NCBI GenBank assembly: GCA_965223415.1
Contig: OZ245002.1
Location: 2,496,001-2,560,000 of the forward strand
Direction of reading: 5' to 3'
DNA length: 64,000 bases
Source: Myxococcota bacterium
GTDB taxonomy: Bacteria > Myxococcota_A > UBA9160 > UBA6930
The first letter of the stretch is position 1, and each line of letters starts with the position of its first letter. Of this stretch, positions 33,776 through 45,322 are shown one piece after another. Under the pieces are notes generated by a model. The model saw nothing but the letters and a program-made list of their open reading frames with translations, was not told the origin of the DNA and ran no database searches. The translations under genes were made by a program, and so were the position numbers.

Positions 33776-33855
33776 GGCTCACCGCAAGGTATCGGATTCC
33801 CAAGCGAAATCGCCTTGCGGCACCACCTCGCAGTAGGAGGGGGCCGAGGCACTAG

Positions 33856-35146
33856 CAGGCTGCGGAAAAACCCCGTGCGACGGGTCGAATCGGTTGGTAC
33901 AGGCATACCGGGGGGATGGAGATGCGCGGAACCGATCGAACGCAGTCCACGATGTTCAGCTACGTGTCGCCGGAGGCGCGTGTCCCCGCCGATCATCCAC
34001 TGCGCGTGACGCGGGAGATGACGAATCGCGCCCTGGTCCGGCTGGACGGGAGGTTGCGGAAGCTGTACTCGCGGACGGGTCGGCCGTCGATTCCGCCCGA
34101 GCACCTGTTGCGGGCCCTGCTGCTGCAGGTGCTCTACTCGGTGCGAAGCGAGCGGATGCTGATGGAGCAGCTCGAGTACAACCTGCTGTTCCGCTGGTTC
34201 GTGGGGCTCGAGATGGACGACCGGGTCTGGGACGTGACGGTGTTCACGAAGAATCGGGATCGGTTGCTTCGGGGAGAGATCGCGGAGGGGTTCTTTCAGG
34301 CCGTGTTGGCGGAGGCCCGCGAGGAGGGGCTTCTGTCGGACGAGCACTTCACGGTGGACGGCACGCTGATCGAGGCATGGGCGGGGCAGAAGAGCTTTCG
34401 GCCGAAGGACGAGGACCGGGGCGGCCGCGGGGGTGGACGGAAGGCGACGGAGCGGGACTTCCACGGTGAGCGTAGGAAGAACGACACGCACGCCTCGACG
34501 ACGGACCCGGAGTCCCGGCTCTACCGCAAGGGGAAGGGGAAGGAAGCGAAGCTGTGCTTCATGGGCCACGTGGTGACGGAGAACCGGCATGGCCTGGTGG
34601 TGGCGGCCAAGACGACGCTGGCCACGGGCACGGCGGAGCGCGAGGCCTCGGTGGCGATGGTGAAGCGGGTGCCACGCGGACGGCGATCGACGTTGGGCGG
34701 AGACAAGGGCTACGACACGGTGTCGCATGTCGAAGAGCTTCGAGAGCTGGGCGTGACCCCGCACGTCGCGCAGAACGACAAGGGCCGCCGCAGCGCGATC
34801 GATGATCGAACGACGACGCACGTGGGCTACGAGATCAGCCAGCGCAAACGCAAGGCGATCGAGCAGGTCTTCGGCTGGGGGAAGACGGTAGGCCCGATTC
34901 GCAAGGTGAAGCATCGCGGCAAGGAGCGGGTGGGCTGGATGTTCACGTTCACCCAGGCGGCCTACAACCTTGTGAGGATGAGGAACCTGCTATGCCCCAC
35001 GTAGCTTGTCGGGTCGAGTGGAGGGCCCCGTTGGCAGCGAGCCGGGCGTCAACCGGCGGCAAGGCCTCGATTCCGCGCTCCTTTCCTAGCCAAAGCGCCT
35101 CCAAGGCACCGTTCTCTGCGTACCATCGGCGTTCTTCCGCAGCCTG
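33856..35146 (+). mobile_element. IS5-family element
   Basis: Terminal IR CAGGCTGCGGAA / TTCCGCAGCCTG, with CTAG duplicated at 33852-33855 and 35147-35150. Confidence 0.92.
33922..35004 (+). CDS. IS5-family transposase
   Basis: 'GRPSIPPEHLLRA', 'VDGTLIEA', 'GDKGYD' and 'IEQVFGW'. Confidence 0.95.
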   Translation: MRGTDRTQSTMFSYVSPEARVPADHPLRVTREMTNRALVRLDGRLRKLYSRTGRPSIPPEHLLRALLLQVLYSVRSERMLMEQLEYNLLFRWFVGLEMDDRVWDVTVFTKNRDRLLRGEIAEGFFQAVLAEAREEGLLSDEHFTVDGTLIEAWAGQKSFRPKDEDRGGRGGGRKATERDFHGERRKNDTHASTTDPESRLYRKGKGKEAKLCFMGHVVTENRHGLVVAAKTTLATGTAEREASVAMVKRVPRGRRSTLGGDKGYDTVSHVEELRELGVTPHVAQNDKGRRSAIDDRTTTHVGYEISQRKRKAIEQVFGWGKTVGPIRKVKHRGKERVGWMFTFTQAAYNLVRMRNLLCPT

Positions 35147-35350
35147 CTAGGACCCGGGGCCAAAGACGGAGAGATACGAGTCTAGGGCTGCGCTGAGCCA
35201 GCTGTCGTCGAGCCGCCGCAACTCGTCGATTCGCTCCTCGGGTTGGAGAATGTCGAGAAGGAGCTTCCCGAAGGGCAATTCGGGCTTGGCATCCCAGGCA
35301 CTGCCCAGCGCCTCGAGGATCTCCGCTCGCTCCTCTTCGCGGTTGGACAC
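35147..35350 (-). CDS. Small cassette hypothetical protein (67 aa)
   Basis: 'ILEALGSAWDAKPELPFGKLL'; the stop codon lies in the IS5 CTAG target. Confidence 0.6.
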   Translation of the reverse strand: MSNREEERAEILEALGSAWDAKPELPFGKLLLDILQPEERIDELRRLDDSWLSAALDSYLSVFGPGS

Positions 35351-35420
35351 CCCGCCAGCCTACCCCTAGAAGGTTCGCTCGCTGGCGCCCGATCGCGTCC
35401 AACCTGTCCGCGTTCGCCAA

Positions 35421-35521
35421 GCCGCCTTGTACCTCTGATCCAGCCGGCCAAGGAACAACCCCAGGCTACCATGGCCGTTTGAAGGGTGCTTGGAGCCGTC
35501 AGCTGCAGCCGCTTGTTAGGC
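35421..35521 (-). other. attC site whose R' end is replaced by an IS110 left-end stub
   Basis: R''/L'' GCCTAACAAGCGGCTGCAGCTGAC. The other end reads GCCGCCTTGTACCTCTGA, identical to 37297-37314. Confidence 0.75.
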
Positions 35522-35528
35522 GCCGCGC

Positions 35529-36786
35529 GGTACGGTCCGGCCACATCCTTTACAGGAGTCCAGGGACATCGTTTACACCCGGGGGATGCCCTGGATGGAA
35601 ACGGATGCAAGGAAGCAGCGGCAGGCGTTCGTTCGCGACTACGAGAGCGGTCAGTGGTCGATGAGCGAGCTGTGTCGGCGGTATCGTGTCTCCCGGCCCA
35701 CAGGCTACAAGTGGCTCGGGCGCTTCGAGTCGGAGGGGGAGGCCGGCCTGGAGGAGAGGTCCCGTGCGCCGGCTCGCTGCCCGCACAGGACGCCAGCGAG
35801 CGTGGAGCGCAAGATCCTGGCCCTTCGCGCCGAGTACGGCTGGGGTGCGAAGAAGATCTTGCAGGTGCTCGAGCGCCGGTACCCGAAGATGCAGAGGCCC
35901 GCGCGAAGCACGGTGAACGCGATCCTCGATCGCCACGGCAAGCTGCGCAAGAACCGACGTCGGAAGAAGTGGTCGCATCCCGGCGCTGCGTCGCTGTCGA
36001 CCGACCACCCGAACCAGGTGTGGCCCGCGGACTTCAAGGGCCAATTCAAGATGCGCAACGGTCGCTACTGCTACCCGCTGACCGTGACCGACCACTGCAG
36101 CCGCAAGCTCCTGATGTGCCGCGGGCTGCACTCGATTCGCACCGAGGGCGTGAAGCCGCTGTTTCGGGAGCTCTTTCGCGAGGTCGGACTTCCCGAGGCG
36201 ATTCGCACCGACAACGGTGCCCCCTTCGCATCGACCGGGATCCACGGCCTGTGCGAACTCAACGTGTGGTGGATGAAGCTCGGCATCGTGCACCAGCGCA
36301 TCCGTCCTTCGAGCCCCCAACAGAACGGGCAGCACGAGAGGATGCACAAGGACCTCAAACGCGAGGCGACCCGCCCGCCTGGCGCGAACCTCAACGTCCA
36401 GCAGCGGATGCTCGAGGCCTTTCGTCGACGCTACAACGAGGAGCGGCCGCACGAAGCACTCGGTGGAGCGTTTCCCGAGGAGCGCTACGAGCCCTCGCCG
36501 CGGCCGTACCCCAGTCGCCTCTCGCCGCCGGAGTACCCTGCGCAGATGGAAGTGCGCCGCGTGAGCCGGGCCGGGACGTTTCGGCTGAAGGCGAAGCAGC
36601 CCTTCCTGAGCAACGCACTGGCCGATGAGTACATCGGACTTGAAGAGATCGGCGACGGCATCTGGAGCATCGTCTACTACGAGACGATCCTGGGCCGCAT
36701 CGACGAGCGCAGCAGGAAGATCACCGGAGTCTGAGAGGTGTAAACGATCTACCTGGACTTGTGTAAAGGATCAGCCGGACCGGTCA
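35529..36786 (+). mobile_element. IS481-family element
   Basis: Long imperfect IRs (CGGTCCGGC..ATCCTTTACA..GTTTACACC and its reverse complement); inserted between a cassette stop codon and its attC. Confidence 0.85.
35586..36734 (+). CDS. IS481-family transposase (HTH + rve)
   Basis: MPWME start, 'WPADFKG', 'RTDNGAPF' and 'QQNGQHERMH'. Confidence 0.93.
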   Translation: MPWMETDARKQRQAFVRDYESGQWSMSELCRRYRVSRPTGYKWLGRFESEGEAGLEERSRAPARCPHRTPASVERKILALRAEYGWGAKKILQVLERRYPKMQRPARSTVNAILDRHGKLRKNRRRKKWSHPGAASLSTDHPNQVWPADFKGQFKMRNGRYCYPLTVTDHCSRKLLMCRGLHSIRTEGVKPLFRELFREVGLPEAIRTDNGAPFASTGIHGLCELNVWWMKLGIVHQRIRPSSPQQNGQHERMHKDLKREATRPPGANLNVQQRMLEAFRRRYNEERPHEALGGAFPEERYEPSPRPYPSRLSPPEYPAQMEVRRVSRAGTFRLKAKQPFLSNALADEYIGLEEIGDGIWSIVYYETILGRIDERSRKITGV

Positions 36787-36790
36787 GGCC

Positions 36791-37249
36791 CTAGAACCTG
36801 GAGCTGAGCCAGGTCGCATTCCTGGCCAACAGAAAACCCACGAGAACCCTTGCGAGAGGAGACACCAGGTACCCGATGAACGTCGTCGAACTCATCCTCT
36901 CAGGAGCTGACATGGCCATTGAAAATAGAACTACGAACGCAGAGAGAAGCGAAGCAGAGCCTGCAGCCATGAAGAAGATCCCGAGCAGAACGACGCCGAG
37001 GGAGAGCCACTGCGCCCCCGGGGCAACGCTCGGCGGGTTGTGCTCTGGCATGCTGAATGCGACGTAACGCGAGAGCACCAGGAGGACGACTCCTGGAATC
37101 CAGTTGCCAGCTAGCGTGGGCCAGGAGTCCAACAGCATCGACGAGAGGGGCCTCACAAGATCCTCGGACTGGCCCATGACCAAGTAGTAACTGGAAGCCT
37201 CGTGGGCCCATTCGGCGACACCGGACGCAAGAAAGAACAGGCCGAGCAA
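36791..37249 (-). CDS. Cassette-borne membrane protein (start uncertain)
   Basis: Four hydrophobic helices with an internal repeat 'LLG(L/I)FF(L/M)A.G'; lower GC. Confidence 0.65.
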   Translation of the reverse strand: MLGLFFLASGVAEWAHEASSYYLVMGQSEDLVRPLSSMLLDSWPTLAGNWIPGVVLLVLSRYVAFSMPEHNPPSVAPGAQWLSLGVVLLGIFFMAAGSASLLSAFVVLFSMAMSAPERMSSTTFIGYLVSPLARVLVGFLLARNATWLSSRF

Positions 37250-37309
37250 CGCCGTCCCAGTCCGCGCAACTTCGGTCAGCTTGAACCCCCCTTCGCGCCG
37301 CCTTGTACC

Positions 37310-37515
37310 TCTGAGCAGGCTCTTCGGGCCTGAGTGAGACTCCGAGATGGGTTCCCGGGAAAGGCCGTCGCTGCCTGAAGCCAGAGAGCTTGTCCGTTAG
37401 ATGGGCCTCCCGCCCTCGTCACCCATGCCGTGGAGTATCCGAGGCCCGAGAGCCTGCGTCTACAAGGTCCGTAGGTGAATGTGCAGGGTCGGGAGACCCG
37501 GGTCCCAGCTTATCA
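37310..37515 (+). ncRNA. Putative bridge RNA
   Basis: Guides CGCTGCCT (37369), TGTCCGTTAG (37391), GGAGTATC (37432) and TACAAG (37461) match the target and donor ends. RNA boundaries are approximate. Confidence 0.8.
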
Positions 37516-37530
37516 CGGGGAGGAGAGACC

Positions 37531-38526
37531 TTGAAGAAGTGTCATTACGTGGGCGTGGACGTCGGGGCGAAGGAGCTCGTCGTCGCCATCGACCGGAACG
37601 GAACTCGCGAGGGCGGGCTGGTCTTTGCGAACGATCCCAAGGGCCACCAGAGGCTGATTCGGTGGGCCACGAAGGGGAATGCGACGGCGCGCGTCGTCCT
37701 GGAATCGACCGGGGTGTACGGCCTCGACCTCGCGTTCGCGCTTCACCGTGCGAAGGCGTCCCAGGTGATGGTGGCGAACCCGCGGGCCATTGCCGCGTTC
37801 GCCAAGGCATCGCTTCAACGCTCCAAGACGGATGCGCTCGATGCGGAAACGATTCTCGAGTTCGGAATGCGCATGGAGTTTTCCGCCTGGACTCCGCCGG
37901 ACCCCCGAATTCTGGAGGTACGGGCCCTCTCCCGCCGCGTGGAGGCTCTGAGCAAGACCGTGACGCAGGAGAAGAACCGGCTCCATGCCAACGACCAGAG
38001 CGAGGAGCTCAGTGAGTTCGTGAAGCAAGACATCCGCGAACTGATCGAGCTCCTGGAGGGGCGAATCGATCGGCTGCGCAAGCAAGCGTTGAAGGTGATC
38101 GAGCAGAGCCCCGAGCTCGCCAGAGACTTCGGCCACATCACATCGATCAAGGGTATCGCCGACGCAGCCGGCATCCAGTTGCTCGCCGAGCTAGGCACCT
38201 TGCCCAAGGACATGACGACCCGGCAATGGGTCGCGCATGCGGGCCTCGACCCCCGACAGTTTCAATCGGGCACCTCTGTGCACAAGCCAGCTCGCATCAG
38301 CAAGACCGGCAACGCCCACCTTCGCCGCGCACTCTTTCTTCCTGCGATGGTCGCTGCACGCTGGGAACCGAACGTGAAGGCCTTCTACGAGAAGCTGCTC
38401 TCCAAGGGCAAAACCAAGATGCAAGCACTCGTCGCCGTCATGCGGAAGCTGCTCCACGCCATCTACGGCATGCTCCGCCACGACCAGGACTTCCTTGGCG
38501 AGAAATTCTTCGCCACGAAGGGTTGA
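37531..38526 (+). CDS. IS110 recombinase
   Basis: DEDD residues (GVDVG, LEST, KTDALDA) and catalytic QSG; TTG start after GAGGAG. Confidence 0.95.
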   Translation: MKKCHYVGVDVGAKELVVAIDRNGTREGGLVFANDPKGHQRLIRWATKGNATARVVLESTGVYGLDLAFALHRAKASQVMVANPRAIAAFAKASLQRSKTDALDAETILEFGMRMEFSAWTPPDPRILEVRALSRRVEALSKTVTQEKNRLHANDQSEELSEFVKQDIRELIELLEGRIDRLRKQALKVIEQSPELARDFGHITSIKGIADAAGIQLLAELGTLPKDMTTRQWVAHAGLDPRQFQSGTSVHKPARISKTGNAHLRRALFLPAMVAARWEPNVKAFYEKLLSKGKTKMQALVAVMRKLLHAIYGMLRHDQDFLGEKFFATKG

Positions 38527-38543
38527 CGACGAAGGGAGTATCT

Positions 38544-38646
38544 AACGGACAGGCGGCTCAGCTGCTGGGCAGGCCCCGAAGCTCACTGAGGCGCCTGGGT
38601 GGAACCCAAGAGTACCACGCCCCAGTTGGAACGCGCGGTTGCCCGG
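38544..38646 (-). other. attC central and right part (split by three IS)
   Basis: AACGGACAGGCGGCTCAGCTGCTGGGCA...TTGCCCGG continues at 40022 as GTCAGCTGCAGCCGCT. Confidence 0.82.
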
Positions 38647-38724
38647 AGGGTATAGGGAGGTCAGCTCCTTGGAGAACAGCCACCTTGGCTGTGTTCCAAC
38701 AAACACTCCCCAAGGAGACTGACC

Positions 38725-39774
38725 ATGACGACAGAGTACTTCGCTGGGATCGACTTGCATCGCACCGTGATCCAGATCTGCGTGCTGGATGCGCGGGGTG
38801 AGAAGATCGCCGAGGAGAGGATCCGCTCCGAGAGCCTTGAACAGGGCCTCGGGGTCGTGGAGCGGCTGAAGTTCTTCGGACCCCATTGCCGCGTAGCCGT
38901 CGAGGCGTTGGGCCTCAACCGGTGGTTCGTCAACGCCTGCCGAGAGGCGCAGCTCGACGTTCTGGTCTGTGATCCGCGCAAGCTCGACCTGAAGAAGCTC
39001 GGCAAGAAGACGGACCGGCGAGATGCAGCCGAGATTGCACGCCGGCTCTGGCTCGGTGATCTGGATCGGGTGGCAACGACCTACTACCCGAGCGACGAGG
39101 AGTACGGGAGGAGGAAGCTCCTTCGGGTCCGCCACCGCCTCGTCCAGATGCGCCAACAGGCCGTGAACCAGCTCCGGGGCTTCCTGAACGCCTACCGGAT
39201 TCCCGCTCCCACGAGCGCGCTCTATACCAAGCCGAGCCGGGAGAAGCTCCGCACCGTCACCCTGCCGACCCTGGAGATGCAGACCGCCTTCAAGGCCCTG
39301 CTCCAGGTGCTCGATAGCCTGCAGGGCCAGGTGCTGGCTCTCGATCGGGAGATCCGACGGATCGGGCGAGAGGATCCCGACGTCCAGGCCCTCGAGCAGG
39401 AGCTCCCGAGCATCGGGACGCAATCGGCTGCCACGCTGCTCGCCGAGATCGGCGACCCGCACCGATTCCGAGGCCCCCGTGCGGTCTCGGCCTTCGCCGG
39501 CTTCACCCCCAAGGTGAACCAGTCAGCCGACCACGCCCACCACGGCCGCATGACCCGCCAAGGCCAGGCCGAGCTCCGCTGGATCGTCAGCCAATGGGCG
39601 GTTCGCCTGATGAAGGACGACCCGTTGGTTCGTGCCTGGGCGAAGACGATGCGGACCCGCGTCCACAAGAACAAGGTCCGCATGGCCTTGGCTCGCAGAC
39701 TCCTCGTCAGCGTCTGGGTCACGCTCACCCGCGGCGAGGCCTTCGATCTCCGGAGGTGCCTTGGCATGGCGTAG
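38725..39774 (+). CDS. IS110/IS1111 recombinase
   Basis: GIDLH, VEA, KTDRRDA and NQSA; AAGGAG RBS. Confidence 0.94.
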   Translation: MTTEYFAGIDLHRTVIQICVLDARGEKIAEERIRSESLEQGLGVVERLKFFGPHCRVAVEALGLNRWFVNACREAQLDVLVCDPRKLDLKKLGKKTDRRDAAEIARRLWLGDLDRVATTYYPSDEEYGRRKLLRVRHRLVQMRQQAVNQLRGFLNAYRIPAPTSALYTKPSREKLRTVTLPTLEMQTAFKALLQVLDSLQGQVLALDREIRRIGREDPDVQALEQELPSIGTQSAATLLAEIGDPHRFRGPRAVSAFAGFTPKVNQSADHAHHGRMTRQGQAELRWIVSQWAVRLMKDDPLVRAWAKTMRTRVHKNKVRMALARRLLVSVWVTLTRGEAFDLRRCLGMA

Positions 39775-39779
39775 CCCCG

Positions 39780-39995
39780 CTCCCCCAGGACCCCTTCTCG
39801 CTTGTGTTCCAACGAAGACGGTAGGCGGGCAGCTGACTGCGGCCCATGAGCCCTTGGCCCCGATTCACCACCGTCGCCCCGAACCCCTCATTGAGCCCAC
39901 GAGGCCGACAACGCGTTTGGACTGAACCCGAACCCGCAGGGACGCAAGCCGATTCCGTTGGAGGACACCACCAAGACCCACACGTGCTTCGCGAT
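39780..39995 (+). ncRNA. Putative seekRNA/bridge RNA
   Basis: GCAGCTGAC (39829-39837) is the reverse complement of the right flank GTCAGCTGC. CGTTT and CCCTC segments are complementary to the element ends. Confidence 0.65.
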
Positions 39996-40035
39996 CATTG
40001 GAGTTGACACTCCCTAAACGGGTCAGCTGCAGCCG

Positions 40036-40805
40036 CTCCTATGATGCTAGGCATGGTTAGATGAAGCGGCCGGTGAGCAGAGGCACTGCCCACCGGCCTT
40101 TCTCAACCGGAGCGGAAGACCGGTAGCCGTCGGGTCCCTCGTGAGACCGTTAACCAGCTTGGGTCTCCGCTCCACAGCCGCAGCGAAGCTCGAACGATCG
40201 CCTGGGCCTCTTGCGAGAGCCCGTAACCAGGAGCCCGAGTTCGTTGCACCTTGGAGTCTACCATGGGGATGAACGTCGGGATCGACGTCTCGAAACACTC
40301 GCTTGATTGGACCTCAGGAAGCAAGGGGAAGCTTCAGCACACCCGCAACGAGCCGCGGGCCATCGCCCACCTCCTGCGTCGGATGGCCGAGCTCGACCCC
40401 GAGCGCATCGTCGTCGAGTCGACCGGGGGCTACGAGCGCCCGGTGGTCCAGAAGCTCGCCGAGGCGGGACTCCCGGTCGTCGTCGTGAACCCGGTTCGCG
40501 TTCGGCGCTTCGCCGAAGGCCTGGGGCTGCTGGCGAAGACGGACGCGGCAGATGCGCAGGTGCTCGCACTCTACGGCGAGAAGGCCGGGCCGCCGATCCG
40601 GCCGATTCCGATGGGGAGAAGCCGTCTGCTGGCCGATCTCATCGCACGGCGCCGCCAGCTCGTCTCGATCCTGGTGGCCGAGAAGGGTCGGCGGGAAGCG
40701 GCGCCTCGAGCTGCGCAGGCCTCGATCACGAGGATTCTCCGTGCTCTCGAGCGCGAGGTCGACGGCATCGACCAGCGCATCCAGAAGGCGATCGAAGACG
40801 ACCTC
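40036..40805 (+). mobile_element. IS110 element, 3'-truncated by IS21, with 5' bridge-RNA region
   Basis: Starts at the CT after GCAGCCG. Guides GTAGCCG (40123), TAACCAG (40151) and AGGAG (40229). Confidence 0.8.
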
Positions 40806-40835
40806 TGTCGAGGGACGTCATCTCTTGCGCGCTAA
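40263..40835 (+). pseudogene. IS110 recombinase, N-terminal half only
   Basis: GIDVSK, VESTGGYE and KTDAADA; the frame is broken at the IS21 end (40806). Confidence 0.9.
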
Positions 40836-40940
40836 GAGGACGGCTAGTTTTGCGCACCCCCCTGGGTTGATGTTCGGTTCTTCCTTCTTCTCTTCCGCTC
40901 TCCGAAGGAGAGCACGGCCGTCAGGCCGCCCTCTGGGGCC

Positions 40941-41741
40941 TCAACGCTGGGCGCTTTGCCCCGCGGCCTGCTCGAGCTCGCGGAGCCGGTAGCTCCGCCC
41001 CGAGATGTTGAGCACCTGGCTGTGGTGGAGGAGGCGATCGAGGATGGCGGTGGCCAGCACCTCGTCGCCCGCCAGCACCTCGGGCCAGTCGGCGATGCCC
41101 TTGTTCGTGGTGATCAGGATCGAGCCCCTCCCATAGCGGTAGGAGACGAGCCGGAAGAAGAGGCTCGCCTCCTGGCGCGTCATGGGCTCGAAGCCGACCT
41201 CGTCGATGACGAGGAGCGCCACGTTCATGTGCTTGCGCCGCCGCAGCCGTTGCGGGCTGATCTCGGCGTCGCGCTTGAGGGCCGCCAGCAGGTCCTCGAG
41301 GCGATGGAAGGCCACGGAGAAGCCGTTCTCCACGGCCCGCACCCCCAGGGCCACCGCCAGGTGGGTCTTGCCCACTCCCGGCGGACCCTGGATCAGCAGA
41401 CTCTCCTTGGCCCGGATCCACGCGCAGGTGCCCAGCGTCTCGATCCGGCTCCGCTCCACACTCGGCTGGAAGGCGAAGTCGAAGTTGCCGAGGGTCTGCC
41501 CCGTGGGAAGGCCCGAGAGACGGAGCGAGGTCTTCATCCTCCGCTCCTCGCGGTGCTGCAGCTCGGCCTCGAGCAGCAGGTCGAGGAAGCGGTGGGGCAC
41601 GAGGTCGTCCTTGGTCGCTCGGGCCAGCTCCTCGCCGATGTGCTCGGCCGCGTGATGGAGGCCGAGGCGCACGAGCCGCTCGCGGGTCGGGTCGAGATCC
41701 ACCTTGCCGCCCTTCTTGGGCACCGGGTTTCCCGCCGTCAT
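40941..41741 (-). CDS. istB: IS21 helper ATPase
   Basis: GPPGVGKT, LLVIDEVG, ITTNK and ILDRLLH. Confidence 0.95.
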   Translation of the reverse strand: MTAGNPVPKKGGKVDLDPTRERLVRLGLHHAAEHIGEELARATKDDLVPHRFLDLLLEAELQHREERRMKTSLRLSGLPTGQTLGNFDFAFQPSVERSRIETLGTCAWIRAKESLLIQGPPGVGKTHLAVALGVRAVENGFSVAFHRLEDLLAALKRDAEISPQRLRRRKHMNVALLVIDEVGFEPMTRQEASLFFRLVSYRYGRGSILITTNKGIADWPEVLAGDEVLATAILDRLLHHSQVLNISGRSYRLRELEQAAGQSAQR

Positions 41742-43024
41742 CGCGCCACCTCCGCCAGATCGGCATAGAGGTCGATCGGCCGCTGCTCCGGCTCCATCGC
41801 CCACAGCTCCTGGAGGCGTCGACCCATGCGCCCGAGCGGTACGGGCGCCTCCACCCCCTCCGTGCTCGGCCCCTCGTAGTGGCTCGGGTCCAGCAGCAGG
41901 CGGCTTCGCGTGTGGCGCGGGTGCGCGGCCACCACCGAGCCCTCGGCCCAGACCTGCACCTGCCGGGCGCAGCCGCGCACCTCGACGCTCTGCTCGACGA
42001 AGCGGAAGGGGACGCTGTAGGTACGCCCCTCGAAGCGCACCGTGGCGTCGCGCCCGACACGTCGCATCACGGCCAGGTCGAAGGGCTCGGGAAGCCGCTC
42101 GGGCAGGGCCCCGAGATGGGGCTTCTCCGCCTCCCACGCCTGGAAGACCGTCGTGCCCGTCGCCGGGCACTGCCGCCGGTGGCTCGAGCGCGCCACCTGG
42201 CCGTCCGTCCACGCTTGCAGCGACTCCAGGCTCTCGTGCTCCCGCCGACGCGGATCGAAGCCCCGCCGGTGCCCCAGGATCCGACGCTCCACCTTCCCCT
42301 TCTCCTGCGGCTGGCGGGGACGGGTGGCGTCCACGTGGAAGCGAAGGGCCCCGGCATAGCTCGCGTAAGCCGGGTTCACCGTCCCCCATGGCCCCGCCCC
42401 CTTCGCCACCGCTGTCTTCACGTTGTCGACCCGCAGCACCGCCGGCACCCCGCCCAGCCGCTCGAAGGCCCGGTTGTGCACGTCCAGCCACGCCAGCGTG
42501 TCCGCCCGCTCCGACCACACCACCGCTTCTCGCCGCGAGTGCGAGAGCACCAGGTGGAAGGCATGCAGGTCCACCTCCTGGCCCCCGATCCGCACGCCCG
42601 GAAACTCGCCCCAGTCCACCTGACCCTGCGCCCCGGGCGGTGTCTCCACCCGACGCCGGCTCCGCACCTTCGGTCTCGGGAACCGGGCCCGCACGTACCG
42701 CTGCACGCTCTTGGAGCTCCCCGTGTACCCGTGCTCCTCCACCAGGAACTCGTGAAGCTCCTGCAGGTTCACGCCACGGCCTCCCGAGCTCGCCTCCAGC
42801 CACTCCGCGATCACCTCGTGGACCGCCTCGGCCAGGAAGGGCTTCCCGCTCCGGCCGTCTCGCGCCCCCTCCGCCAGCCGCTTCAGCCGGTAGCGCACCG
42901 CGCTCTCCCGGATCCCCAGCTGGCGGGCGATCTCCCGGTTCGAGCACCCCCGCTCGTGCAGCACTTCGATCGTCATCACTTCCTCCTGCCTCAGTCGCCG
43001 CTGCCCCACGCCCCCCTCCCTCAC
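41738..43024 (-). CDS. istA: IS21 transposase
   Basis: HTH, 'ETPPGAQGQVDWG', 'DNVKTAV' and 'KGKVER'. Confidence 0.95.
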   Translation of the reverse strand: MREGGVGQRRLRQEEVMTIEVLHERGCSNREIARQLGIRESAVRYRLKRLAEGARDGRSGKPFLAEAVHEVIAEWLEASSGGRGVNLQELHEFLVEEHGYTGSSKSVQRYVRARFPRPKVRSRRRVETPPGAQGQVDWGEFPGVRIGGQEVDLHAFHLVLSHSRREAVVWSERADTLAWLDVHNRAFERLGGVPAVLRVDNVKTAVAKGAGPWGTVNPAYASYAGALRFHVDATRPRQPQEKGKVERRILGHRRGFDPRRREHESLESLQAWTDGQVARSSHRRQCPATGTTVFQAWEAEKPHLGALPERLPEPFDLAVMRRVGRDATVRFEGRTYSVPFRFVEQSVEVRGCARQVQVWAEGSVVAAHPRHTRSRLLLDPSHYEGPSTEGVEAPVPLGRMGRRLQELWAMEPEQRPIDLYADLAEVAR

Positions 43025-43274
43025 GGGGAACGTGCCGCGCAGCGGCTCAACAGGAGGTGCGCAAATCTACGTGTCCTCTTAGCCCTCGAATATCACGTCC
43101 TGCGACAGTGCCGTCTGGTGCCGCCGCAGTTGTGCGTTCGAGTCCCCACCGCGTTTGCGAAATTGAGAACTGACCCTCAGGCTCGCGGAAGGAGGGTCAC
43201 TCGTAGCTTCCCGCCTAACCGCGAATGCCTGATCCAATAGGCTGAAAGGAATTCGAACCCCCGACCCTTGTATC

Positions 43275-43495
43275 TACTCCACTCACCCGGATCTGGTTCA
43301 ATAGGGTCAGAACGGGTTTCGGGGGAGGGTCGCCGTCCCGACCCAGAGGCATGGTCCTCGTACCTGAGAGAGGCGCCCTCGCCCGATCTCGCAAGCTCGA
43401 ACGGTATCCCGAGGCAGCGGTCTGCCGCTCGTCCTCGCATGCACAAGGAAGAGCACCGAGGTCGGCACCGAGGCTCCCGACGCTCCCGTTCGAGG
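43275..43495 (+). ncRNA. Putative bridge RNA
   Basis: Guides CCCGACCC (43337), ACCTGAG (43362), ACGGTATC (43401) and CACAAG (43442). Confidence 0.78.
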
Positions 43496-43507
43496 AGGAA
43501 GAAGGGG

Positions 43508-44683
43508 ATGCGCTTCGTTGGGATCGACATCGCCTCGGAAACGCACGTCGTCGCGATGGTGGGAGAAGACGGGGGCGTGCTGCTGAAGCCGGTCTCGTTC
43601 CGGGAGGAGGCGGCTGGCTACGCACTGCTGTGGGAGAAGCTGGGAGGCCCCGAGGACACGCTCGTAACGCTCGAGGCAACGGGGCACTACTGGAAGAACC
43701 TGTTCGCGGCGCTTGCGGCGAGGGGTTTTGCCGTGGCGTTGATCAACCCGCTGCGCAGTCGCCGGTTCGCACAAGAAGACTTGGAGCGGACGAAGACCGA
43801 CGCAATCGATGCGCTCGGCCTGGCTCGCTTCGGAGCACAGAAGCGTCCGAGGGTGACTCGCCTTCCGGACGCGGCGACAGAAGAGCTTCGTGAGCTCGTC
43901 CGGCTCCGCGATCGTCTGGTTCAGGACTTCGGGGACTGCACCCGGCGGCTCCACCGCATGGTCGATCTGGGCTTCCCAGAGCTCAAACGGTACGTGAAGC
44001 ACCTCGATAGCCAGCTGTCGACGGGGCTGCTGCGGGAGTACCCCACGGCAAGAGCCTTCCAGGAAGCCTCTGTGGGGCGCGTGGCAAAGCTTCGCTACGA
44101 CGGTCGTCATCGTGTAGGCGATGCGCTCGCGAAGCAGCTCGTCGAGGCTGCGCAGAACTCGGTGGGCGCCCATCATGGCCCGGCCTACCAGGTGCAGGTG
44201 CGTTACCTGTGCGAAGACATGGACGTCTTGCGCAAGAGACTCGGCGACATCGACCGCGACATCGCGGATCAGCTATCCGCGCACGAGGTCGGAAGCTTGC
44301 TGACGACGATCGATGGGATCGGGCCGACGACGGCAGCACGGCTCATCGCGGAGCTCGGTGACCCGGCCGACTTCGCCACGGCCGCAGCCCTCGCCGCCTA
44401 CGTGGGCGTCGTTCCAGGCCTAAAGCAGTCGGGCAAGCGCCAAGGCAAACGCGGGAACCTCTCGCCAATCGGTCACGCGCGGCTACGTCGCGCACTGTGG
44501 ATGCCGACGTTGGTCGCCGTTCGGAAGAACCCCTGGGTGCGGGCCCACTACGAGCGGCTGCGCGACAACGGCAAGCCCGCAAAGGTCGCGCTGATCGCCT
44601 CGACGAGGAAGCTGCTCATCGCGGTTCACGTCGTGGCGAGGACCCGCAAGCCCTTCGTTCCACAGCTAGAGACCAACCCATGA
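43508..44683 (+). CDS. IS110 recombinase
   Basis: GIDIA, LEATGHY, KTDAIDA and KQSG. Confidence 0.95.
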   Translation: MRFVGIDIASETHVVAMVGEDGGVLLKPVSFREEAAGYALLWEKLGGPEDTLVTLEATGHYWKNLFAALAARGFAVALINPLRSRRFAQEDLERTKTDAIDALGLARFGAQKRPRVTRLPDAATEELRELVRLRDRLVQDFGDCTRRLHRMVDLGFPELKRYVKHLDSQLSTGLLREYPTARAFQEASVGRVAKLRYDGRHRVGDALAKQLVEAAQNSVGAHHGPAYQVQVRYLCEDMDVLRKRLGDIDRDIADQLSAHEVGSLLTTIDGIGPTTAARLIAELGDPADFATAAALAAYVGVVPGLKQSGKRQGKRGNLSPIGHARLRRALWMPTLVAVRKNPWVRAHYERLRDNGKPAKVALIASTRKLLIAVHVVARTRKPFVPQLETNP

Positions 44684-44773
44684 ACCGAGAAAACCGGGCC
44701 CAGCCCCTTGCTGAAGATCACGGTATCTCAGGTTCGAAGCCTGGGGGTCGGGGGCTCTCCCACCCCACGCGTC

Positions 44774-45322
44774 CTAGTCGAGGAATGCCCACAAGAGCCG
44801 TCGGCTCCTCGCGTCCAGGCTCCCCGGGCTCGACACCAGGTAGAGATCCCCGGCCACGTCCTTGATCAGGAGGCCGCCGCCGGGCATCTCGCGGGGCCAC
44901 TCGTCCCGGAGGGTCTGGAAGCTGCGCTCGCCCTGGGCCGTGCGCACGCGGAAGGTGCGGATCTCGATCTCCTCGTCCACGTCGAGCACCGCCTGGATCT
45001 CGAGCACGAAGCCCGCCTCGAGCAAGGCCGTGCCCAGCGCCCGCTGGGCCGTGTAGGGGAGGTCGGTGAGGTCGCGCACGAGCGCCACCTCCTCCTCGTC
45101 CCGGTCACGGAGCGAGACGTAGCGCGACGGCTTCGACCAGGGGAAGCAGCGCACGGGCCGCACCGAGCAGGTGCGGTCGGCAGTGCGCGCCCAGAGCTGG
45201 CCGTCGGAGCCACGCCACAGCTCGAGGCCCGCCATCGGGCGCCGCGGAGCCTGGTGCGCCACGGCGCGTCCGCGCCGGCTGGGTGCGAGGGTCTTCGGCT
45301 CTCGTCTCTGCGGGTCGTTCAT
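44774..45322 (-). CDS. DUF1854 domain protein
   Basis: 'VRPVRCFPWSKPSRYVSL' and 'LIKDVAGDLY'; downstream of the ABC transporter. Confidence 0.82.
   Translation of the reverse strand: MNDPQRREPKTLAPSRRGRAVAHQAPRRPMAGLELWRGSDGQLWARTADRTCSVRPVRCFPWSKPSRYVSLRDRDEEEVALVRDLTDLPYTAQRALGTALLEAGFVLEIQAVLDVDEEIEIRTFRVRTAQGERSFQTLRDEWPREMPGGGLLIKDVAGDLYLVSSPGSLDARSRRLLWAFLD

Follow-up and report, generated by a model that had tools for sequence, protein, structure and literature searches.

IS621 of Escherichia coli, the founding bridge-RNA element among the insertion sequences (IS) of the IS110 family, targets repetitive extragenic palindromic (REP) elements. For other members of this family, the IS1111-attC elements and IS4321/IS5075, the insertion sites are integron attC sites and Tn21-type terminal repeats. 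Williams is said to have described in 2002 the tRNA-gene attachment (att) sites of tyrosine-integrase islands and the tandem arrays that such islands form. For IS621, the available part of PMC11208160 has the left guide of the bridge RNA pairing with the bottom strand and the right guide with the top strand, both including the core dinucleotide, and a CT core is strongly preferred there. Here we describe an IS110-family insertion sequence at positions 43269-44728 of a 64,000-nucleotide stretch (G000:C1:2496001-2560000; the whole stretch is called the window below) from the genome of a Myxococcota bacterium, which is a single contig of 5.83 Mb with 71% GC. We consider it very probable that this is a bridge-RNA IS110 element whose guide is set on the CT allele of tRNA-Arg, an allele found in this genome only in partial, att-type copies, and that the CC-core host tRNA gene is left untouched.

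Anatomy of the element and its genomic copies

The element is 1460 bp long, lies on the plus strand, starts with TGTATC and ends with ACGGTAT-CT. Its sole gene (43508-44683, plus strand) encodes a transposase, or recombinase, of 391 amino acids that carries the DEDD_Tnp_IS110 (PF01548, E 3.4e-36) and Transposase_20 (PF02371, E 3.3e-28) domains. The closest solved structures are ISCro4 (9t56, E 4.6e-37) and the IS621 transposase (8wt6, E 1.2e-35), and the stretches GIDxxx, EAT, TDAxDA and SG are retained when the protein is aligned to the transposases of both; the assignment of catalytic residues was taken from the available part of PMC11208158. The element has no terminal inverted repeats. One CT core forms its last two bases (44727-44728) and a second CT directly precedes it (43267-43268), and the identical core dinucleotide occurs at both junctions of all five genomic copies, the window's included. 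The four other copies are at least 99.9% identical to it over at least 1487 nt, which indicates that the element has moved recently, and all copies lie on the plus strand.

For comparison, we collected 80 loci encoding relatives of the transposase with 54-71% amino-acid identity; counts of ends and flanks refer to the 45 of these loci in which both ends were located and at least 25 nt of flank was present. CT on both sides, together with the ends CT-TGTAT and GGTAT-CT, was found in 43 of the 45. Judged by sequence, the machine is a canonical IS110-group (bridge-RNA) insertion sequence, and everything about its machinery is IS110/IS621-like.

Bridge RNA fold and guides

The non-coding left end of approximately 240 nt was aligned for the window element and 39 relatives, with L036, L079, L054, L059, L060 and L076 left out. 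The consensus fold of these 40 sequences consists of two stem/internal-loop/stem modules with 39 pairs, 18 of which show compensatory change. The target-binding module (43321-43384, plus strand) has an outer stem and an internal loop with both target guides placed around a small hairpin; the donor-binding module (43382-43465, plus strand) likewise has an outer stem and an internal loop with both donor guides around a hairpin. A preliminary description made from the letters of the window had named four guide strings, and these fall where it placed them, within the internal loops of the conserved fold. The left target guide CCCGACCC (43337-43344) matches the flank over 8 nt and the right target guide ACCTGAG (43362-43368) over 7 nt, while the left donor guide ACGGTATC (43401-43408) matches over 8 nt the right-end donor sequence, ACGGTAT plus the core CT (44720-44728, plus strand). 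The right donor guide CACAAG (43442-43447) agrees with the donor at 5/6 bases.

The guides follow the flanks across the relatives. An exact complement of at least 6 nt to the element's own core and right flank was present at the same offset in 39 of the 45. In a shuffle test on 40 rows including the window, from which two sequences without the anchor stem and the mis-anchored L054, L059, L060 and L076 had been removed, the right guide matched its own flank at 4.63 of 5 non-core bases, compared with 3.02 when flanks were shuffled among elements, and the left guide matched at 4.6 of 7, compared with 3.68. None of 2000 shuffles reached either observed value, in a test that ignores kinship among the sequences and is inflated by it; 22 different right flanks and 35 different left flanks were involved. 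We infer from the sequence that the bridge RNA is made.

The target is a segment of tRNA-Arg(TCG)

When the two flanks of the element are rejoined and read on the minus strand, they give CAGG-CTTCGAA-CCTG-AG-GGTC-GGGGG-TTCGAAT-TCC, letter for letter as first described. The left half of this split target (43248-43268; GGAATTCGAACCCCCGACC-CT) corresponds on the minus strand to the last variable-region bases, the 5' T-stem strand and the T-loop, gene positions 45-64. The right half (44729-44744, in a flank that reads CAGGTTCGAAGCCTGG from 44729) corresponds to the anticodon arm of tRNA-Arg(TCG), gene positions 28-43, with 16/16 bases identical. The reference for this comparison was the genome's only complete tRNA-Arg(TCG) gene, at G000:C1:1217012-1217088. 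Over the anticodon arm to the T-loop, the rejoined 37-nt site is identical to this gene at 35/37 positions. Gene positions 45-61 are matched 17/17 in the left flank (43248-43266 plus the core); at position 44 the site has A and the host tRNA has G, and at positions 62-64 the site has TCC and the host tRNA CCC. The T-arm is present by half (its 5' strand and loop), and the D-arm and acceptor stem are missing, as had been noted. Two features had gone unremarked: the core, which is AG on this strand and CT on that of the element, differs from the GG of the host tRNA, and, together with the downstream run 44740-44754, the rejoined site makes up a palindrome of 15 bp.

The local score of the rejoined site against the tRNA was 66, and the best of the 45 distant relatives scored 28. 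This difference, and the recurrence of the same flanks at all five copies, indicate that the resemblance to tRNA is more than chance. The target addressed by the guides comprises 14 nt, CCCGACC-CT-CAGGT; on the opposite strand, these correspond to the region of tRNA-Arg(UCG) where the anticodon stem, variable loop and T-stem meet. The earlier proposal that the element is programmed against a tRNA sequence was supported, with the target loop pairing over 8 + 7 nt along this stretch and tRNA-Arg-like flanks at 5/5 genomic copies and 3/3 metagenomic relatives.

In every genomic copy, the tRNA-like sequence lies on the strand opposite to the element. The flank of copy B runs to the CCA end, with positions 45-77 at 100%; copy C is situated inside a pseudo-tRNA with a replaced 5' half, and copies D and E lie inside shorter tRNA-Arg pieces. 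When metagenomes were scanned with a 21-mer taken from the target loop, five loci were returned, three of which are relatives of the element with approximately 84% nucleotide identity and the same guide. L119 and L121, which also matched the 21-mer, are unrelated coding sequence and were rejected as relatives. The left flanks of all three relatives are tRNA-Arg-like, reaching the CCA end in two of them (L118 and L120), and the single right flank visible among them consists of island-end DNA followed by the anticodon arm, as in copy E. Contigs from a sediment metagenome carry a copy that is 95-99% alike, with flanks that match the window from 43247 and up to 44744 and then diverge.

The same kind of flank was not found in any of the 45 distant relatives, and ARAGORN called no tRNA among 46 rejoined sites, which suggests that the tRNA target belongs to the sub-lineage and not to the clade. 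The preliminary description had proposed the flanks of homologous elements as a check; they are tRNA-like in the five copies and in the ~84% and 95-99% relatives, but not in the more distant ones.

BLAST alignments between the copies extend 12-23 nt past the left end and approximately 16-18 nt past the right end, as would be seen if the tRNA-like flanks were part of the mobile unit and travelled with the element instead of being target DNA. We regard this as extremely improbable. The tRNA similarity of the flanks ends at a different point in each copy and then gives way to unrelated sequence, and the ends themselves are kept in the 43 distant relatives noted above, where the flanks differ and covary with the guides.

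Only the CT allele is occupied

The CT-core 14-mer does not occur uninterrupted in the genome, and CT stands at both junctions of all five occupied sites. The corresponding 14-mer with a CC core occurs six times, in the host tRNA gene and in five exact partial copies, none of which is occupied. The guides match the CT allele at 14/14 positions and the CC sites at 13/14. The host tRNA-Arg gene has a C27-G43 pair, giving the CC core, and the CT allele has a U27-A43 pair (Sprinzl position 43).

The CT version is common outside this genome. A pattern search located it in 112 of the 193 genomes from the host's order. Of 12 sampled CT loci, seven proved to be tRNA-Arg(tcg) genes of the full 77 nt; a tRNA-Arg of 75 nt in which the 5' half is replaced was called there by ARAGORN as well, and the rest are partial with non-tRNA 5' flanks. 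The host version (C27-G43) was found in 54 of the 193 genomes and dominates in the host's family (21/32). Within the genus, all three complete tRNA genes checked carry G43, and one member has its A43 copy in the form of an unoccupied fragment. An A43-type partial tRNA-Arg preceded by a non-tRNA 5' flank is present on two predicted viral contigs. By these matches, the guide is a 14/14 match to a real and widespread tRNA allele, which is seen in the host genome only as partial copies, each of them occupied. Five unoccupied genomic sites share with the target only its 11-nt 7+2+2 portion, with a CT core, and the longer right guide therefore appears to matter.

Two other accounts of the alleles were considered. 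An independent G-to-A mutation in five fragments was rejected once the allele proved widespread. Fragments combining C27 with A43 or T27 with G43 were considered as reciprocal att recombination products of two alleles, and this was dropped because an identity block starting at position 28 explains C27 equally well (compare the metagenomic locus L120).

In IS621, according to the available part of PMC11208158, the protein reads the core T, which is nearly invariant, and cleavage of the top strand takes place 3' of the core, with the result that the core of the left junction comes from the target. A left-junction core inherited in this way would mean that the targets carried T before insertion. 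It may instead be supposed that the element inserted into CC-core tRNA-Arg and that CT was made during or after insertion, in which case the functional tRNA would be a potential target. The occupied sites C, D and E do have unoccupied CC-core paralogous fragments, the guides match such sites at all but one of 14 positions, and the structural paper on IS621, in the part available, allows for repair of mismatched nucleotides (PMC11208158). The left junction nevertheless reads CT in 5/5 copies, where a top-strand cut 3' of the core would leave the core of the target, and any conservative exchange leaves the target's core at one junction. All six CC sites are empty, and conversion is not needed, as CT is a natural allele seen in 112/193 genomes, in viral contigs and in an unoccupied fragment of the same genus. 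We consider conversion of a CC target very improbable and retain the reading in which the element enters copies that already carry CT.

Partial tRNA-Arg copies and islands in the genome

The host tRNA gene is followed, 116 nt downstream, by a tyrosine integrase gene (1217204-1217749); 40 kb away, at 1256793, 50 nt of the 3' part of the tRNA gene are repeated perfectly. The span from G000:C1:1217012 to 1256842 constitutes a classical island integrated at the real tRNA-Arg(TCG). A further 11 fragments, all unoccupied (E <=0.005), begin between gene positions 23 and 31, except for one that begins at 60, and end at positions ranging from 47 to 77. The fragments at 1256793, 5419347 and 5449805 reach gene position 77. 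Nine of the 11 unoccupied fragments and four of the five occupied sites are co-oriented within 4.911-4.931 Mb and 5.38-5.45 Mb, and in the first of these stretches the fragments separate small gene sets. An integrase arm-binding remnant, itself split by another IS, adjoins copy C. This architecture suggests that the partial copies are attachment-site-type repeats of elements integrating at tRNA-Arg and that the fragments arose by integrase action, and the clusters look like the tandem accretion of small integrative modules. Serine recombinases were considered as makers of the fragments and rejected, as the genome has no Resolvase-domain match.

The co-oriented partial copies (4911000-4931000 and 5380000-5450000) are spaced 1-22 kb apart, far from the real tRNA gene, and the gene sets between them include a RimK-like ATP-grasp pair, an XRE regulator and a fatty-acid hydroxylase. 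Similar clusters exist in relatives, for example six copies within 13 kb of G143:C14. A 70-nt pseudo-tRNA-Arg with the true 3' two-thirds and a replaced 5' part (TGTCCGGTGGTTCGACATCGAGCA) is found at 5419351-5419420 and 5449809-5449878, and the same pseudo-tRNA-Arg occurs at L096 in a genome of another family (G029); it probably represents the attP-side module of an element that is widespread. ARAGORN calls a host tRNA-Arg with anticodon GCG, not ACG. If this call is correct, CGA codons would be read by tRNA-Arg(UCG) alone, which would make it essential.

The window site and its surroundings

To the right of the site lie conserved genes, namely a DUF1854 gene (44774-45322), an ABC transporter and asd. 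To the left, GC falls to 63-66% over approximately 31-41 kb, and an accessory patch at 33852-43107 is made up of a chain of multi-copy insertion sequences with only transposases. The patch contains IS5-like and IS481-like elements, two other IS110-family elements different from the one studied here (37296-38548 and 38601-40037), a truncated third (40251-40832), and a 2.3-kb rve/Mu-transposase-C element (40806-43107). This last element has at least 17 other genomic copies and is the most abundant IS among these. Several of its copies lie approximately 0.1-1 kb from tRNA genes or tRNA-Arg-like fragments, one being 940 nt from the real tRNA-Arg and one 374 nt from a tRNA-Met, and one copy is the IS that splits the integrase arm-binding gene beside copy C.

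The palindrome formed by rejoining the site has a 15-bp stem and a 7-nt loop, with its right arm (CCTGGGGGTCGGGGG, 44740-44754) 20 nt beyond the DUF1854 stop codon. Four genomes of the same genus share the DUF1854 operon at 81-83% identity. The preliminary description had proposed that relatives be checked for an intact tRNA or an absence of the island; in all four, similarity ends at the DUF1854 stop codon and the neighbours all differ, and none of the four has a tRNA within 900 nt. One of the four has a hairpin at this spot that can be aligned along the entire rejoined site, including both arms and a T-loop-like tail, and that has diverged about as much as the neighbouring genes. At L083 (G002), a hairpin homologous to the split palindrome of the window (CCCCGACCCCAG / CTGGGGTCGGGG) is situated approximately 60-100 nt downstream of the DUF1854 stop codon, where it immediately follows the end of an enoyl-CoA-hydratase-like gene at its stop codon. 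The presence of a homologous hairpin at the orthologous place beside a different gene suggests that the site predates the patch. The tRNA-like hairpin is probably older than the IS nest and probably serves as an operon terminator.

A native terminator or REP-like hairpin downstream of the DUF1854 operon might itself be the real target, with its resemblance to tRNA incidental. Both the stem and loop of the rejoined site and the homologous hairpin in the same-genus genome would fit this, and REP hairpins are targeted by other IS110 elements according to the available parts of PMC12288879 and 10.64898/2026.03.19.712850. The other four copies and the metagenomic relatives have no palindrome yet have tRNA-like flanks, which run to CCA in copy B, L118 and L120; the extended palindrome occurs once in the genome, and outside the anticodon arm the other four insertion sites show no palindrome. 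In addition, the anticodon loop and the T-loop are matched, which a stem alone would not explain. As a general account, targeting of a hairpin is largely refuted, and we hold it very improbable. In the tRNA-allele reading, the IS would have struck the hairpin of the window because this hairpin carries the CT allele, and the nest would then have grown beside it.

The fragment in the window had also been proposed to be an old att remnant marking the right boundary of an accessory region. In favor of this, it is located at the junction of conserved genes and the low-GC IS patch, the allele is seen in the genus only in fragments, and other such fragments in the genome, at the 40-kb island with its integrase and beside copy C with its integrase remnant, are true att-type repeats. 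Against it, none of the genome's 10 tyrosine-recombinase matches falls in the window, no other tRNA-Arg-like match that could be a partner repeat was found within 2496001-2560000, and the similarity of the fragment ends at gene position 61-64 of 77, short of the 3' CCA end of the tRNA. The patch, moreover, is composed of multi-copy IS and not of island cargo. We put the chance that the fragment is an att remnant, possibly a very old one, at slightly under even; that it marks the arrival of the present patch appears less probable still. A candidate second, decayed tRNA-like copy at 43108-43248 (containing GACCCTCAGG) was rejected, as its local score of 18 was reached by 227/2000 shuffles.

Proposed mechanism and points against it

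The observed part of the explanation consists of the anatomy, the guide matches, their covariation, and the distributions of copies and alleles. On the mechanism built on these, the 5' non-coding end would encode an RNA with two internal loops, one pairing with the element's own joined ends (ACGGTAT-CT-TGTAT) and the other with the DNA target CCCGACC-CT-CAGGT. Partial tRNA-Arg copies with the target allele would be made or carried by elements that integrate at tRNA-Arg, and every CT partial copy would receive the IS in one orientation. The C27-G43 pair of the functional tRNA and its exact partial copies would give a CC core, which loses the T read by IS621-type enzymes, and no insertion would follow. 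The copy in the window would have entered the tRNA-like hairpin just downstream of the DUF1854/ABC operon.

Several observations weigh against this explanation or limit it. That a CC core blocks insertion is suggested by the six unoccupied sites and by analogy with the biochemistry of IS621. In the left target guide, the second core position is occupied by A, a base that pairs with neither allele. Folding the left end as a single sequence gave no improvement over shuffles (z -0.65), and the RNA structure rests on the alignment. An Rfam scan of 42800-45200 with E up to 10 gave five weak matches far below gathering scores, which we treated as chance; the best match to the RNA, sX15, was on the opposite strand and sub-threshold at E 0.49. 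A sigma-70-type promoter was looked for in the linear copy and none was found, and the assembled contigs of four runs showed no joints indicating an empty site or a circle. Within the order, just one other of 193 genomes contained the element, as a 69% relative, in a set where draft genomes often lose repeats. Finally, the target in the window is also a palindrome partly shared with the hairpin of a relative, and structure could aid recognition there.

The allele distribution might be read further. The guide would be a 14/14 match to the working tRNA-Arg(UCG) of most members of the order and would confine the element to C27-G43 hosts or strictly to att-type duplicates; the switch from a U-A to a C-G pair would then amount to target-site immunity, and the IS would be an att-site parasite. 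We consider this extension unlikely. If it were true, islands and proviruses would carry the IS along, and by splitting their att sites the IS may fix them in place.

Comparison with known systems

The unusual part of this system is its natural target, a segment of a tRNA gene multiplied by other mobile elements, in which a one-base core difference separates the occupied copies from the functional gene. A literature search found no paper on an IS110 element aimed at tRNA-derived sites; the search was incomplete, and the supplementary natural-target tables of the bridge-RNA papers lay outside it. Bridge-RNA recombinases are under development as genome-writing tools, and their natural guide targets are still mostly described as REP-type repeats. 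The present element offers a clear natural case of a guide directed at part of a tRNA gene that integrative elements multiply, and also a natural test of core stringency, with CT set against CC and 13 other bases matched. It suggests that one kind of mobile element can become specialised for the attachment sites of others.

The window element resembles IS621 in its two-domain DEDD and serine recombinase and in a left-end RNA upstream of the gene, with two internal loops that hold left and right guides for target and donor, a CT core at both ends and guides that covary with the flanks. It differs in the right target guide, which spans 7 nt including the core compared with 4 in IS621 (in the available part of PMC11208160), in the unpaired second core base of the left target guide, and in its tRNA-derived natural target. 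ISPpu9 and ISPpu10 of Pseudomonas putida, as far as they are covered by the available parts of PMC12288879 and 10.64898/2026.03.19.712850, are similar in being present as several identical copies that all lie in one short repeated intergenic sequence. Their repeats are host-native REP palindromes, whereas that of the window element is a piece of tRNA multiplied by integrative elements, with an allele unlike that of the host gene. The IS1111-attC elements and IS4321/IS5075 resemble it in that their fixed target is a site at which another class of mobile element recombines, but they belong to the IS1111 group, carry the guide RNA at the other end, and have targets that are not tRNA-derived. The tRNA att sites of tyrosine-integrase islands are comparable in their partial copies, which begin close to the anticodon arm, share one orientation and have integrase genes or remnants and variable cargo on their flanks. 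In that case, however, the repeats are the habitat and not the element, and the fragment in the window differs in that it has neither the 3' end of the tRNA nor an integrase nor a partner repeat.

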